DNA from: Halococcus hamelinensis 100A6
GTDB lineage: Archaea > Halobacteriota > Halobacteria > Halobacteriales > Halococcaceae
Length of the DNA: 40,000 bases
NCBI RefSeq assembly: GCF_000336675.1
Contig: NZ_AOMB01000006.1
Coordinates: forward strand, 17,221-57,220
Direction: 5' to 3'
In this document: piece by piece, positions 2,796-19,996 of the stretch
Layout: each line of letters begins with the position of its first letter
How positions within the stretch are numbered: the first letter of the stretch is position 1
Notes under the pieces: generated by a model
Told to the model about the DNA's origin: nothing
Database searches by the model: none
Seen by the model: only the letters and a program-made list of their open reading frames with translations
Program-made: the position numbers and the translations under genes

Positions 2796-3323
2796 CTACG
2801 ACCGCGTCGCGCTCCAGACCCGGTCCCGGCGGCCGTCGGTTCCGGCGTCGGCCGCCACCGACCTCGTTCGAGCCGTGGTACACGAGAGTCCCGCCTCCGA
2901 CATCAGCCGGCGAACGTGCCGTCGGCAGTACTCCACGTCGAAGGTCTCCCCGATGTATCGCTGTGCCAGGGTCGTCGTCCACGCTGTGGCGTCGTAACCG
3001 ACCGCCGTCGGTGAGTCGTGGAGTGCCGCCGCGAGTTGGTCCGACTGGTCCGGCGAGAGCGCCCGCGACTGTCCGGGTTTGGGGCCGCGTTTCTCGTCGT
3101 AGAGCACCTCCTCGGGGGGGTCGGTTTCGAGCCGGTCGAGTCGGGCGAGCCAGTTGTGGACGGTCCCCTCCGAGACGCCGTAGCGCGAGGCCAGCGTGGG
3201 CTGGGTAACCGACTCCTCCTTGTAGTTGAGCGCGAGCATCAGGCGCTGTGTCGGTCGTTTACCCTCGACGTCGTCCAGCAGGGCACGGAGTTCGTCGGCG
3301 GTCACGTTCTCGAGGTGGGGCAT
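2796..3323 (-). CDS. Stand-alone IS630-type transposase N-terminal HTH domain protein (no DDE domain follows)
   Basis: 175 aa. Two HTH-like segments (PTQRLMLALNYKEESVTQPTLASRYGVSEGTVHNWLARL and TAWTTTLAQRYIGETFDVEYCRRHVRRLMSEAGLS) are typical of the N-terminal DNA-binding part of IS630/Tc1-like transposases. No DDE catalytic ORF is visible downstream in any frame. It is a paralog of 19514..19996. Confidence 0.7.
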   Translation of the reverse strand: MPHLENVTADELRALLDDVEGKRPTQRLMLALNYKEESVTQPTLASRYGVSEGTVHNWLARLDRLETDPPEEVLYDEKRGPKPGQSRALSPDQSDQLAAALHDSPTAVGYDATAWTTTLAQRYIGETFDVEYCRRHVRRLMSEAGLSCTTARTRSVAADAGTDGRRDRVWSATRS

Positions 3324-8475: not shown

Positions 8476-9186
8476 TCAGTCCACGTGCTCCCCGTAGAGT
8501 GCCGACCGGTCGACGATGTTCTGGACGGTCGTTCTCGTGACCCCCGCCAGTTTCGCGGTCGAGCGCTTGCTCTTGCCGTCGCGGAGTCGTTCGATGACCA
8601 GGAGCGCGGTGTTGAAGTCGTCGTTGGGAACCAATCGTCCGTTCTCGCTGTCGAAGCCGTACGGGGGCCGACCGACGTGTTTGCCGCTCGCCTTCGCGGC
8701 GTGGATCCCCTCGCGCGTTCGTTCCGTGCTCACCGACGCCTCGATATCCGCGGCGATCGATAGCCCCTGTAGTATCGCGCTCTCGTCGGGGGAGTCGGTT
8801 CCATCGGCGCGAGCCGTCCCCTGCTCGCCCAATGCGAGACCGATGTCGAGGATGTGGAGCGCGACCCCCGCATCGAGGAGCGTCTCGACGAACTCGTTGA
8901 AGTCCACGACCGTCTTCGCGACGCGAGCGGCATCGGTGACGATGACCCGGTCTACTGCCGTCGCAGCGATCCGGTCGAGCATCGTTTGATAGCCCGACGA
9001 CTGGTCGGCACGCGCTTCCACGCCCTCATCGACGAACACCGAGACGTCGTTCGGGTCGAGGTCGAAGTTCCGTTCGGCGTAACTGAGGATTTGCTCGCGC
9101 TGGTTCGCTCCCCTCCCCGTACTAACGACGCGGACATAACCGATGGTCGCCTTTTCTCTCGTATCTCCGCCACTATCTACTGCCAT
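8476..9186 (-). CDS. Serine-recombinase (resolvase/invertase) family protein with C-terminal HTH and divergent catalytic motifs
   Basis: 236 aa. The N-terminus IGYVRVVSTGRGANQREQ resembles the YxRVSTxxQ nucleophile motif but carries insertions. The C-terminal HTH is RSTAKLAGVTRTTVQNIVDR, preceded by GRPPYGF. It is flanked on both sides by AT-richer non-coding DNA. Confidence 0.75.
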   Translation of the reverse strand: MAVDSGGDTREKATIGYVRVVSTGRGANQREQILSYAERNFDLDPNDVSVFVDEGVEARADQSSGYQTMLDRIAATAVDRVIVTDAARVAKTVVDFNEFVETLLDAGVALHILDIGLALGEQGTARADGTDSPDESAILQGLSIAADIEASVSTERTREGIHAAKASGKHVGRPPYGFDSENGRLVPNDDFNTALLVIERLRDGKSKRSTAKLAGVTRTTVQNIVDRSALYGEHVD

Positions 9187-13548: not shown

Positions 13549-14361
13549 CTACGCTCCGAACCCACCCACCGCGAGGAATCGTTCGTACTCCGGTTCGGTG
13601 AGGCCCGTCTGCCCGAGGTCCCTCCCGTGGGCGTCGCTCCCACCGGTGACGAGGAGGTCGTGGCGCTCGACCGTTCGTCGGTCGCGACCGGAATCGTGGG
13701 CTGGGTTGGACGGGGAGTAGGGGTAGCGACACTCCACCGCGTCCAGTCGGGCAGCCAACTCGAAGACGTCGTCGAGCGCGCCGTACCGATACGGATGTGC
13801 GAGGCTGACGACGTTACACGCCTCCGAGAGCAGTGAAACGCCCCGCTCGAACGAGGGGATCTCGCGCGGGACGTTACAGGGACCGTCGTCGCCGATGAGT
13901 TCGTCGAAGGCGTCCTGATAGGTGTGATCGGTCCCGGGGTGTGCATCGACCGCGCGGGCGATGTGTGGACGACCGATGCCCTCCTCGACCTCGACGTCCA
14001 GCGTGATGTCCAGCTCGCGCTCGACCAGTTCGATGATGCGTGCGCCACGGGTCTTCCGGTCCATCTGAAGGCGGTCGAGCTCGGTACGGAGTGCGGGTGA
14101 CCCCGTCACGCCGTACCCGAGCAGGTCGATCCCGTCGGGAAGCGAATCGACCTCGACGCGGAGTTCGATCCCGTGGATGACGTCGATGCCGTCGACCCGC
14201 ACGAGCGGTGCGTCCAGATCAGGGTGGGTCCTGTCGTGGTCGGTGACGGCGACGGCGGCGAGGCCGGCTTCGGTCGCCGCGGCCGGAACCTCGTCGAGGG
14301 CGAGTTCGCCGTCGGAGTTCGTCGTATGGACGTGCAGATCCGCGTAGACCGGCTCTTTCAT
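13549..14361 (-). CDS. PHP-domain metal-dependent phosphoesterase (COG0613 / TrpH-YciV type); candidate 3',5'-bisphosphate nucleotidase
   Basis: ATG at 14359-14361 (MKEPVYADLHVHTTNSDGELALDEV...AVAVTDHD...GIELR...LAHPYRY...GGSDAHG). The DLHVHTxxSDG, TDHD, GxE, AHP and GSDAHG blocks are the PHP metal ligands. It is transcribed divergently from the sulfotransferase operon. Confidence 0.85.
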   Translation of the reverse strand: MKEPVYADLHVHTTNSDGELALDEVPAAATEAGLAAVAVTDHDRTHPDLDAPLVRVDGIDVIHGIELRVEVDSLPDGIDLLGYGVTGSPALRTELDRLQMDRKTRGARIIELVERELDITLDVEVEEGIGRPHIARAVDAHPGTDHTYQDAFDELIGDDGPCNVPREIPSFERGVSLLSEACNVVSLAHPYRYGALDDVFELAARLDAVECRYPYSPSNPAHDSGRDRRTVERHDLLVTGGSDAHGRDLGQTGLTEPEYERFLAVGGFGA

Positions 14362-14675: not shown

Positions 14676-15899
14676 GTGGTGAGCAGCGAAGGATCGAGTC
14701 GTCTCCGGGAACGGGCCAGACGGAACTACGGGTACATCGAGCGCGAGGTTATCTCGGAGGGGAAACGCTCGGTCCTCTCGAACCATCGGATCGACGACTT
14801 CGACAGCGTGTTGCTCATCGCGTCCGCCCCGCGGGGCGGCAGCAGTCTCCTCTTCGACGTTCTCCGGCACCACGAGCGGACGTGTAGCCTCGACGGCGAA
14901 CACGACCGATGGTTCATGCTCCACGACCTCTGTTACCCCACGTTCGAGTCGGACGTCATCCCGGCGGACTTCGATTCGTTCGACGGGGAGACCCTCGGAA
15001 GGGACCTCCTCGCCGAGGTCGGGGCGACCGAACGCGCCGGCGAGCACACACATCGCGTGGACAACACGCTCGTCCGACTCCCGTTGCAGTTCCCCGACCG
15101 GGAGCTCCCCTACGAGTGGATACGCGACCGGCTGCTCGACGGCGTACCGCTCGACGAGGTCCTTCGGGAACTCGACATCTCGCCGCTGCAGTACGACGAG
15201 TACGCGACGCGGGACGCCCCTCATCCGCTCGGAAACGAGACGATCGAGGACCGGCCGTTCGTCTCCTCGCACGACCACAAGCGGGCCCTCAGGGAGGACG
15301 ACTTCGAGCGCACGCTCGTCCTGAAGGCGAGCGGCGACGCGTACCGACTCCCGTGGATCCGAAACCAGCTCCTGCCCGAGACCGACGTCACCCTCGTTCA
15401 CCTCACGCGGAACCCGGCGGCGTCGATCAACGGCCTCTACGACGGGTGGCGACTGAACAGGGGTTTCCAGACGTACGACGTGGGCGACCTCGACCTCGAG
15501 GGCTACGACGGCTCGCTGTGGTGCTACGACCTCCCGCCGGGCTGGACCACGGAGGGAGACCTCATCGACGTCTGCCTGCTGCAGTGGCTCCAGGCCCACC
15601 GCCACATCCTCGACGCCCGCGACGCGTTCGACGACGTCCTCCGGGTCCGCTTCGAGGACGTGCTCACCGACACCCCGTCCGTCGTTCAGGAGGTCCTCGA
15701 GTTCGCCGGGCTCGGCGAGTCGGCGCTGCTCTCCGAGAACGTCGACGACCCCAACGAGGTCATGACGACGAAGGAGCCGAGGCGCGCTCGCTGGCGGGAC
15801 AGGGAGGACCTCATCCAGGGGACGCTCGACCGGGCCGACGGGACGTACTCCGAGGTCGTCGAACGACTGGGCTACACGGCGGAGTCCGAATGGATATGA
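14676..15899 (+). CDS. PAPS-dependent sulfotransferase family protein (acceptor unknown)
   Basis: 407 aa, with the start provisionally at GTG 14676 (no in-frame ATG nearby). LLIASAPRGGSSLLFDVL matches the 5'-phosphosulfate-binding loop (P-x-x-G-S/T-S/T). LVHLTRNPAASINGLYDGW matches the 3'-phosphate-binding R-x-P-x(5)-S motif. Confidence 0.8.
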   Translation: MVSSEGSSRLRERARRNYGYIEREVISEGKRSVLSNHRIDDFDSVLLIASAPRGGSSLLFDVLRHHERTCSLDGEHDRWFMLHDLCYPTFESDVIPADFDSFDGETLGRDLLAEVGATERAGEHTHRVDNTLVRLPLQFPDRELPYEWIRDRLLDGVPLDEVLRELDISPLQYDEYATRDAPHPLGNETIEDRPFVSSHDHKRALREDDFERTLVLKASGDAYRLPWIRNQLLPETDVTLVHLTRNPAASINGLYDGWRLNRGFQTYDVGDLDLEGYDGSLWCYDLPPGWTTEGDLIDVCLLQWLQAHRHILDARDAFDDVLRVRFEDVLTDTPSVVQEVLEFAGLGESALLSENVDDPNEVMTTKEPRRARWRDREDLIQGTLDRADGTYSEVVERLGYTAESEWI

Positions 15900-16078
15900 G
15901 CGAGCGAACGACGACCACGAGGGTCACACCCACGACGGACGAGCCAGCCCGGACGACCCGGGACGCATCGACTGTCGAGCCGGCGCCGACGGAGGCGTAC
16001 ACGCACGAACCCCCCGTCAGTGAGCTTGGGGGAGGAGTGGGAGGAACTCTCCTCCCCACGGGAGGGGGAGATCCGTGA
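15890..16078 (+). CDS. 62-aa Thr/Pro/Glu-rich micro-protein, translationally coupled at both ends (hypothetical)
   Basis: MDMSERTTTTRVTPTTDEPARTTRDASTVEPAPTEAYTHEPPVSELGGGVGGTLLPTGGGDP. The ATG at 15890 (and 15896) overlaps the sulfotransferase stop (ATGGATATGA). Its TGA (16076-16078) overlaps the next ATG (16078). By hand count 45 of 62 codons end in G/C, 36 of the first 43. The ORF exactly fills an otherwise unexplained 178-nt gap in an operon whose other junctions overlap. Confidence 0.45.
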   Translation: MDMSERTTTTRVTPTTDEPARTTRDASTVEPAPTEAYTHEPPVSELGGGVGGTLLPTGGGDP

Positions 16079-16965
16079 TGGGTGACACCCTGTGGCTCTT
16101 CGGGCTGCCCTGTTCCGGGAAGACGACGCTCGCCGAGGGGTTGGTCGGTCCGAGCACGGTCCATCTCGACGGGGACTACCTCCGGAACACCCTGAGTTCC
16201 GACCTCGGGTTCTCGAAGGCGGACCGGACCGAGAACCTGAGGCGGGCCGCCGGGGTCGCCCAGGCGTTGAACGAGCAGGGGTTCGACGTCGTCGCGTCGT
16301 TCATCACCCCCTATCGGTCCCAGCGGGAACTGGTCGCCGAGGTGGTCGAGAACGTCTCGTTCGTGTTCGTCGACACGCCGCTCGAAGTCTGTGAGGAGCG
16401 TGACGTGAAGGGGATGTACGAGCGAGCCCGTCGGGGCGAGATAGAGGGCTTCACCGGTATCGACGCGCCGTTCGAGGGGCTGGCGAGCGACGAGGCCGGG
16501 CTCGAAGTCCGAACGGCGACGAACTCGAAGGAGCGGATCATCGCGGAGATCAACGAGACGCTGGACCGCAAGCTCGATCCGAGCCACGTCTTCATCGGTC
16601 GTTGGCAGCCGCTCCACGACGGCCACCGGACGATCATCGACTCGGCCGCCGACAACGGGAAGGACGTCGTCATCGCGATCCGTGACACCGAACTCAGCGA
16701 GAAGAACCCGCTCACCGCACAGGAGCGCCGGGACCTGATCGAGACGGTCTACGAGGACCACCCGAACGTCGAGACCATGATCGTCCCGGACATCGACACC
16801 GTCGCCATCGGACGGGACGTCGGCTACTCCGTCGTCGCGGTTCCCGAGGACATCTCCGGGATAAGCGGCACGGAGACCAGGGAGAAGTACGGGAAGAGCG
16901 AACTCCTCGAAGGGCGACACTTCAGGGAGCGATCGGTCGATACGCGGCTTCCCGACCATGAATAG
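16078..16965 (+). CDS. cysC: Fusion protein: N-terminal adenylyl-sulfate (APS) kinase plus C-terminal NMNAT/cytidylyltransferase-like nucleotidyltransferase domain
   Basis: The N-terminal ~165 aa carry LFGLPCSGKTTLA (P-loop), LDGDYLR, DLGFSKADRTENLRR, SFITPY, VDTPLEVCEERDVKGMYERARRGEIEGFTGIDAPFE, collinear with CysC. The C-terminal ~125 aa carry VFIGRWQPLHDGH (the GRFQPxHxGH motif of archaeal NMN adenylyltransferases), KNPLTAQERRDLI and ISGTETRE (ISxTxxR motif). A GTG at 16075 is an alternative start. Confidence 0.85.
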   Translation: MGDTLWLFGLPCSGKTTLAEGLVGPSTVHLDGDYLRNTLSSDLGFSKADRTENLRRAAGVAQALNEQGFDVVASFITPYRSQRELVAEVVENVSFVFVDTPLEVCEERDVKGMYERARRGEIEGFTGIDAPFEGLASDEAGLEVRTATNSKERIIAEINETLDRKLDPSHVFIGRWQPLHDGHRTIIDSAADNGKDVVIAIRDTELSEKNPLTAQERRDLIETVYEDHPNVETMIVPDIDTVAIGRDVGYSVVAVPEDISGISGTETREKYGKSELLEGRHFRERSVDTRLPDHE

Positions 16966-17701
16966 GACGGGGCTGCTGTTCGACCAGCCGGAACTGGAGG
17001 ACGCGATAGCAACGGACGAGTTGCTCGATTGGAAGGAGAAACGGTACCTCGAGTTCAGGGAGACGATGCGGAACTCCCGGTACCCGTGTTACTTCGCGGT
17101 GAACGCCGAGCGGGACGACTCCGCCCGATACCTGTTCGCGGAGAACGCCCGTGACCGTGATACGCTTCTCAAGATACGGGAGGGGCTACAGCAGTACCTC
17201 CAACGGTATCGCTCCATCGCCGAACGCACGACCCTCGTCATCTTCTTCGGGCCCGCCGCCGAGGAGCGGAGCGAGCGCGACTACCACGAGCAGTTCTGGA
17301 GGGTGCTCGAGTTCCTCCACCGGCGGGACCCGGAGCCGTGGCCCGCCGACATCCCGACGGAGCCCGACGACCCCGAGTGGGAGTTCTGTTTCGCGGGGGA
17401 ACCGATGTTCGTCGTCGGGCGTGCGCCGTTCTATACGGACCGACGGAGTCGGTACACACCGTATGGGCTCGAGATAACGATCCAACCACGCGAAACCCTC
17501 GACGACATCCGTGGGGACACGGTGGAGGGCCAGCGGATCCGCTCGGTCATCGAGGGCCGGTTGGACGAGTACGACGACGTCGCTCCCCACCCCTCCATCA
17601 GCGATTACGGCGACCCCCACACCCGGGAGTGGAAACAGTACCTGCTCCCGACGTCGAACGAGGAGCGACTGAACGAGTTTCCGTTCGAGATGAACCCATA
17701 G
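16958..17701 (+). CDS. YqcI/YcgG family protein
   Basis: 247 aa. The ATG at 16958 overlaps the preceding stop by 8 nt (ATGAATAG). YPCYFA near the N-terminus and WEFCFAGEPMFVVGRAPFYTDRRSRYTPYGLEITIQPRE match the family signature (WxFxFxGExxFVxxxxPxYxxRxSRxxxxxxxxxFQPR). Confidence 0.8.
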   Translation: MNRTGLLFDQPELEDAIATDELLDWKEKRYLEFRETMRNSRYPCYFAVNAERDDSARYLFAENARDRDTLLKIREGLQQYLQRYRSIAERTTLVIFFGPAAEERSERDYHEQFWRVLEFLHRRDPEPWPADIPTEPDDPEWEFCFAGEPMFVVGRAPFYTDRRSRYTPYGLEITIQPRETLDDIRGDTVEGQRIRSVIEGRLDEYDDVAPHPSISDYGDPHTREWKQYLLPTSNEERLNEFPFEMNP

Positions 17702-19513: not shown

Positions 19514-19996
19514 TTACGGTACCCAGCCGCCGGACTCGTCCGATCCGTCCGAGTCGGTTCGGCGCGCCGGTCGGTAGGAGAGCCCCGCTTCCTTCATCAG
19601 ACGTCGACAGCTCGGTCGCGAGTACTCGACGCCGAAGGTGTCGCGGAGGTAGCGCTGTACCAGCGATGGGTTCCACGCCGAAGCGTCGACACCCGCCTCC
19701 GAGGGGGGCTGCTGGAGGGTCTCCTCGAAGGTCTCACGCTGGTCGGCGGTGAGCTTCCGTGGGCGACCCGAGCGGTCGGCGTCGACGACCGCGTCGGCGA
19801 GCGGCCGTGATTCGAGCCGCATGAGCCAGCTGTAGATGGTTCGGCGCTGGATCCCGTACCAGTCGGCGAGGTCGGTCTGGCTGACGCCGTTCTTGTAGGC
19901 GATCGCCGCGAGAAGGCGCTGTGTGGGTTTCGCCCCGTCGACCTCGTCGAGGGCCGCCTGCAGTTCCTCGACGGAGATCTCGTCGAGATGGTCCAT
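19514..19996 (-). CDS. Stand-alone IS630-type transposase N-terminal HTH domain protein (paralog of 2796..3323)
   Basis: 160 aa. It aligns by eye with 2796..3323 over its whole length (PTQRLL/M.A..YK, ...W(L/M).RL(D/E), A(W/S)(T/N)..L.QRY...TF.VEY.R...RRLM.EAGLS), at roughly 40% identity. There is no DDE ORF downstream. Confidence 0.7.
   Translation of the reverse strand: MDHLDEISVEELQAALDEVDGAKPTQRLLAAIAYKNGVSQTDLADWYGIQRRTIYSWLMRLESRPLADAVVDADRSGRPRKLTADQRETFEETLQQPPSEAGVDASAWNPSLVQRYLRDTFGVEYSRPSCRRLMKEAGLSYRPARRTDSDGSDESGGWVP

Follow-up and report, generated by a model that had tools for sequence, protein, structure and literature searches.

The YqcI/YcgG proteins studied so far number six (AglA, DcsA, ChmN, AmbT, Mhr24 and GntA); all are bacterial and all are linked to guanidine N-hydroxylation (PMC12866846). 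An earlier note on the DNA described here had taken the family to be largely uncharacterised, with GntA as its one biochemically assigned member, a view that these six have overtaken. AglA, from the argolaphos pathway of Streptomyces monomycini, is the closest solved member of the family (PDB 9UB3), and in the wild-type enzyme Lys196 and Lys225 serve the phosphonate (PMC12866846). The K196R/K225E variant hydroxylates free arginine, at N-delta, and in AglA variants the Arg/Glu pair anchors the backbone of the free amino acid. The substrates of AglA and GntA themselves are arginine derivatives, not free arginine. ChmN of the chalkophomycin pathway hydroxylates free arginine at N-delta with ferredoxin, and ChmN-type enzymes are replaceable modules. 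DcsA of the D-cycloserine pathway binds heme, its activity not having been confirmed in vitro. In the guanitoxin pathway, GntA and GntI accomplish N-hydroxylation and then O-phosphorylation of the N-OH group. Guanidine cleavage is reported for no member of the family (PMC12866846).

The second point of comparison is the sulfamate group of nucleocidin, for which nucN and nucO are both required; NucO, a protein with a weak Sulfotransfer_3 match and with 4GBM and 4GOX as its nearest folds, is needed for the S–N product in Streptomyces (PMC10946740, PMC4257720). The literature searched, with most subscription journals outside its scope, yielded no biochemistry of NucO or NucN, no case of hydroxyguanidine O-sulfation and no natural product carrying an N-(sulfooxy)guanidine group.

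The sulfation cassette of Halococcus hamelinensis

The window (the whole stretch of 40,000 nucleotides that was analysed, from H. hamelinensis 100A6) contains a cassette in which a YqcI gene follows sulfation genes. Its features are:

13549..14361, minus strand: divergent PHP phosphoesterase, an optional cassette member (PF02811; NF041577 below cut-off)
14676..15899, plus strand: predicted NucO/AcmO-type PAPS-dependent sulfotransferase (PF13469; nearest solved relatives 4GOX/4GBM)
15890..16078, plus strand: 62-codon remnant of an internally deleted gene for a NucN-like pentein (DDAH/amidinotransferase fold), recognised by its slot and by remnants in relatives that match the ends of the intact pentein
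16078..16965, plus strand: APS kinase fused to an NMNAT-like nucleotidyltransferase, predicted PAPS supply (TIGR00455 above cut-off; PF01583 and PF01467)
16958..17701, plus strand: predicted YqcI/YcgG heme-thiolate guanidine N-hydroxylase of a cassette-specific clade (PF08892; AglA E 3.5e-40, TM 0.81; median dN/dS 0.11)

The PHP phosphoesterase, whose gene lies at the same position in six other cassettes of both types described below, is probably a PAP phosphatase. A profile search of the host genome (96% complete) found no PF01747 ATP sulfurylase; a role as a small sulfurylase is therefore possible for the NMNAT-like domain. Omnitrophota loci carry the APS kinase and NMNAT-like domains in the reverse order. 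The slot of the pentein remnant is occupied in 11 loci by an intact pentein of 286 residues, and relatives of the window cassette have remnants that match the ends of this protein. The 62-codon open reading frame is thus a pentein remnant, which rules it out as a peptide substrate. The rest of the H. hamelinensis genome yielded no intact pentein.

An upstream NitT/TauT ABC importer, a thiamine-binding-domain gene, mgsA and an IclR gene were rejected as parts of the cassette because the other haloarchaeal cassettes that were checked lack them. The cassette contains no conserved exporter or reductase.

The YqcI protein

The open reading frame at 16958–17701 encodes 247 amino acids and contains the motif YPCYFA and the block WEFCFAGEPMF...IQPRE. 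The YqcI/YcgG signature that had been read from these letters is borne out by a match to the full PF08892 profile (positions 1–211 of 211; E 2.6e-73; 246.8 bits against a cut-off of 27). The protein is about 34% identical to AglA. Its predicted model (pLDDT 93) matches the AglA sandwich fold, the 9UB3 comparison giving an E value of 2e-18. It is not an equivalog of GntA, as NF041366 scored 56.9 bits against a cut-off of 145 and covered residues 27–170 only.

Cys44, Phe151, Arg165, Gln176, Arg178, Arg195, Glu224 and Gln227 of the window protein align with functional sites of AglA. The equivalents of AglA C44, F152, R166, Q177, R179, G187 and Q228 are identical in all 20 cassette YqcI proteins compared. 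With respect to the axial cysteine and the basic residues at the heme propionates (AglA C44, R166, K196 and R200), the window protein keeps C44, R165 and R195. The R200 position is variable: it is Arg in 17 of the 20 clade members, Gln in most of the common paralogues, and Glu in the window protein only. AglA further differs from the window protein in having Lys196/Lys225 where the latter has Arg/Glu, and Phe182 where it has Leu181, a residue fixed throughout the cassette clade; its partner, too, is different, that of the window protein being a sulfotransferase. Arg and Glu stand at AglA positions 196 and 225 in 20/20 cassette proteins. Since Arg195/Glu224 is also the family consensus, this pair favours a free amino acid and fixes neither the substrate nor the regiochemistry.

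By alignment, then, the residues predicted to form the heme ligand and the guanidine pocket are retained, and the signature of a heme-thiolate guanidine N-hydroxylase is intact. Purifying selection acts on the cassette clade (median dN/dS 0.11 at dS about 1). Several 2Fe-2S ferredoxin domains are encoded in the H. hamelinensis genome and are possible electron donors. The window YqcI is in itself an ordinary member of a now-characterised enzyme family. An amine or a guanidine, amino sugars included, had been suggested as its substrate; the evidence retains the guanidine, most likely arginine, and makes amines and amino sugars too broad a choice.

ChmN and DcsA, which were likened to the window protein through their descriptions, belong to the same family and have other downstream partners (a SznF-like enzyme in the case of ChmN).

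Of 401 Halobacteria genomes, 265 encode a PF08892 protein. H. hamelinensis itself has a second copy, of the common haloarchaeal type, beside an isochorismatase-family gene and in a context unrelated to the cassette; such pairing with an isochorismatase-family hydrolase is usual for the common paralogue (e.g. L062:908-2241), and the family is present in two thirds of genomes. On the tree, cassette YqcI forms a separate clade (support 99), whose nearest kin are Bacillus-type YqcI–LysE pairs; LysE exporters beside these kin are in line with a small arginine derivative. The common paralogue and the YqcI–LysE proteins share the family and the catalytic residues with the window protein, from which they differ in forming separate clades, 40–54% identical. 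In Halorussus, a YqcI gene lies behind a DUF1989 gene (L136:4266-5744), another guanidine link; we take DUF1989 to be urea-carboxylase-associated.

Linkage of YqcI to the sulfation genes

YqcI begins with an ATG at 16958, and the preceding APS kinase/nucleotidyltransferase gene ends with a TAG at 16965, an overlap of 8 nt that the earlier note had observed. This overlap does exist in the window, and also in three related MAG loci (L004, L010 and L014; junctions read by hand). It is not conserved: 16 of 20 cassette loci have a spacer of 21–26 nt, and conserved translational coupling through the overlap was therefore ruled out. In the window the APS kinase fusion reads through the ancestral stop (TGA changed to CGA), so that its C-terminus is extended, and the overlap is a by-product of this lost stop codon. 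What is conserved is the tight linkage.

As PF08892 is so common in haloarchaea, chance adjacency needed to be excluded. In the 401 haloarchaeal genomes, 13 copies of the cassette YqcI clade were scored, and every one immediately follows this sulfotransferase and this APS kinase gene; the association supposed in the earlier note is thus upheld. In two more genomes both halves stand at contig ends. The cassette itself is patchy, its sulfotransferase being present in 18 of the 401 genomes and in none of the seven other genomes of the same genus. Ten haloarchaeal plasmid records carry it, and resolvase genes are often close by. Such a distribution indicates that the cassette is mobile. In the window, a resolvase gene and two IS630-type HTH genes (8476–9186, 2796–3323 and 19514–19996) bracket the region, which fits a mobile segment.

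Two types of cassette

The haloarchaeal cassettes fall into two types. Type A (11 loci) consists of the sulfotransferase, the intact 286-residue pentein and the APS kinase fusion, without YqcI; in nine of these loci argG (argininosuccinate synthase) holds the slot that YqcI holds in type B. These argG genes are spare copies, additional to the housekeeping one. Type B (21 loci, the window included) has YqcI and a pentein remnant and is devoid of argG. None of these loci combines an intact pentein with YqcI. Further, five type B genomes searched for an intact pentein outside the cassette yielded none, and three type A genomes (G239, G244 and G402) yielded no YqcI. The type A pentein has a Cys-His-Glu triad, with C280, H186, E140 and D92 invariant in the 11 intact copies and a dN/dS of 0.15; the Arg of FxRD and the Asp of EGxD are replaced. 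One type A locus, L008:7001-11234, is a four-gene cassette (sulfotransferase, pentein, APS kinase fusion and extra argG) and offers a minimal system for NucO/NucN chemistry.

Halocatena salina presents a third form, with a pentein remnant of 122 residues and a more distant YqcI placed head-to-head with the sulfotransferase. This YqcI (L096:7066-7821) has Ala where every other row of the alignment keeps the equivalent of AglA Arg179. Halocatena was not accepted as an established case of independent YqcI recruitment, as monophyly with the main clade was not rejected (p-AU 0.19).

When the sulfotransferase tree is rooted on its long-branched bacterial relatives, type B and Halocatena together make up one clade (100/99) nested inside type A. 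With a single YqcI-linked clade, the swap counts as one event, and the locus counts are not independent trials. The YqcI-linked sulfotransferases are 63–72% identical to the pentein type and carry the fixed changes E192D, T218A, N283C/S, S52P, K78R/Q and L359P; V220G and G77D are fixed in the main YqcI clade (type B) only. Positions 218 and 220 flank Lys217, positions 77–78 follow Glu75-His76, and at position 192 every type A and outgroup row has Glu. Several of the changes are to smaller residues. Judging by their neighbours in the sequence, these clade-specific substitutions may line the acceptor site.

The sulfotransferase and its relatives

The window sulfotransferase has a weak Sulfotransfer_3 (PF13469) match, and among solved structures it comes closest to the CurM and olefin-synthase (Ols) domains, 4GOX and 4GBM, the pattern also described for NucO; its Arg53, Lys217 and Arg245 align with the PAPS-binding motifs of these structures. 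Its counterpart in the loci L010 and L113 is 379 residues long, an in-frame deletion inside the gene having removed some 28 residues.

A Streptomyces J-K-L-Q-P-O cluster, with proteins of 558/358/254/155/660/442 residues, matches the acm table (557/356/250/155/658/444) gene by gene in size. The window protein is 30% identical (E 1e-41) to the 442-residue protein of this cluster, which is assigned to O by cluster position and size. The Streptomyces clusters L124:1291-11329 and L040, likewise of the J-K-L-Q-P-O kind, have no pentein gene inside the region examined. NucO/NucN and AcmO/AcmN resemble the cassette in the sulfotransferase subfamily, the pentein neighbour and the PAPS supply, and the cassette sulfotransferase has relatives in acmJ-K-L-Q-P-O-type clusters, as recognised by size and domains. 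Unlike those systems, the window has no NucK, J, L, P, Q, G or I, its pentein is deleted and YqcI is added; of the full nucleocidin/ascamycin set (nucG, I, J, K, L, N, O, P and Q), the cassette has only the O-type gene and the N-type remnant.

Among 126 non-halophile loci, a pentein was found in 89 and YqcI or argG in none; a natural sulfotransferase–pentein fusion also exists (P0303). Bacterial relatives of the sulfotransferase are clustered with a second sulfotransferase, a pentein, a methyltransferase, a B12 radical SAM enzyme, a GyrB–methyltransferase fusion, a rubrerythrin and a sulfatase.

Relatives were seen in phages as well. The viral contig L137:2203-7981 (identical with L218, IMG/VR) carries an HD nucleotidase, two P-loop kinases and an amino acid:DNA transferase (PF18724), and then the sulfotransferase and pentein pair, all placed between DnaB and primase; it is possible that this locus serves sulfur-nitrogen hypermodification of DNA bases. 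The same sulfotransferase occurs on further viral contigs (L219, L221, L222, L224, L225, L226, L227 and L230), with a pentein nearby in six, an ADDT-like neighbour in three, and some neighbours that look thymidylate-synthase-like by eye.

Discussion

Pentein, ArgG and YqcI are all enzymes of arginine chemistry, which points to arginine as the acceptor. Our best reading, held tentatively and at rather less than an even chance, is that arginine is N-hydroxylated and then O-sulfated by a three-enzyme mobile cassette, a narrower version of the route proposed in the earlier note. The APS kinase fusion would supply PAPS, the kinase being assigned by family and the second domain perhaps acting as sulfurylase. 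YqcI, binding heme through Cys44 and working with a host ferredoxin, would N-hydroxylate the guanidine of L-arginine or of a simple derivative, and the sulfotransferase would move SO3 onto the new N-OH to give N-(sulfooxy)arginine. As type B is without the genes for cleavage and recycling, its product should keep the arginine skeleton, with one added oxygen and SO3 (arginine + 96 Da).

O-sulfation is favoured by the fixed changes in the sulfotransferase and by the precedent of GntA and GntI, where N-hydroxylation is likewise followed by an acyl-type group transfer onto the N-OH; the window differs from that system in that its YqcI fails NF041366 and in having no genes for a cyclic guanidine scaffold, no kinase of that pathway and no methyltransferase. 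The residues of the cassette YqcI, the 13/13 linkage, the exchange of pentein and argG for YqcI, the Halocatena arrangement and the YqcI–LysE kin also favour the reading as a whole.

The main rival, unlikely in our estimate, is that the ancestral guanidine N-sulfonation is kept and YqcI hydroxylates another nitrogen (e.g. N-delta) before or after it, giving an N-hydroxy-N'-sulfo-arginine with no N–O–S bond. The ancestral cassette does without YqcI, the S–N product of Streptomyces depends on NucO, and both K196R/K225E AglA and ChmN hydroxylate N-delta; Leu181 could, moreover, admit a bulkier substrate. This residue, however, is present too in the YqcI–LysE relatives that have no sulfotransferase, and the fixed changes adjoining the catalytic residues of the sulfotransferase coincide with the gain of YqcI. 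An N-OH group is also the better nucleophile. The strict mutual exclusion of pentein and YqcI would suit a scheme in which YqcI replaces the pentein as the releasing step, with oxidative or spontaneous cleavage yielding a small N–S or N–O–S molecule (sulfamate or hydroxylamine-O-sulfonate), and ChmN-type enzymes do stand in functionally for an inactive domain in another pathway. We consider it improbable: the loss of argG along with the pentein speaks against continued formation of citrulline, and cleavage would be new to the family.

It is quite improbable that another guanidine (agmatine, guanidinoacetate, or peptide or protein arginine) is hydroxylated and sulfated. AglA and GntA act on derivatives and not on free arginine itself, and the phage relatives of the sulfotransferase–pentein pair lie among DNA-modification genes; against this, no cassette has a gene for a guanidine other than arginine, the equivalents of Arg195/Glu224 anchor a free amino acid in AglA variants, and argG points to arginine. 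That YqcI is a passenger, captured once and not working with the sulfotransferase, appears very improbable, even with its single origin on the tree, the abundance of PF08892 in haloarchaea and the unconserved overlap. YqcI has stayed intact in 21 loci at the low dN/dS given above while the neighbouring pentein decayed, copies of its clade were never found away from the cassette, and Halocatena provides a second arrangement.

On the trees, the ancestral cassette had the sulfotransferase, the pentein, the APS kinase and a spare argG. Pentein cassettes in genomes where no YqcI was found, together with the 126 non-halophile loci, indicate that the ancestral sulfotransferase acted on something other than a product of YqcI. 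Type A chemistry would then be N-sulfonation of arginine, hydrolysis to sulfamate and citrulline, and recycling of the citrulline. In one lineage YqcI was gained, the pentein deleted, argG dropped and the sulfotransferase active site probably altered, so that the arginine skeleton would now be kept in the product. The full proposal is that a NucO-type enzyme changed from N- to O-sulfonation, whereby haloarchaea produce an amino acid with an N-(sulfooxy)guanidine group, and that sulfamate is formed from arginine by NucO and NucN, the citrulline being recycled. It is rather unlikely to hold in all its parts.

What is new here is the context, namely a YqcI protein paired with a NucO-type sulfotransferase, and in archaea: none of the six characterised members is archaeal (PMC12866846), and none is reported as paired with a sulfotransferase in the literature consulted. 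Between them, the two cassette types form an experiment of nature in which partners were exchanged, and each is represented by cultured strains: for example, Haladaptatus and Natrinema for the YqcI type, and Halalkalicoccus salilacus and Haloarcula amylovorans for the type that has pentein and argG. Three or four genes suffice to probe both the proposed N–O-sulfate and the NucO/NucN sulfamate step, compared with the eleven required genes of the Streptomyces pathway. If the proposal is true, the ancestral four-gene cassette would be a candidate answer to how the S–N bond of nucleocidin is formed.
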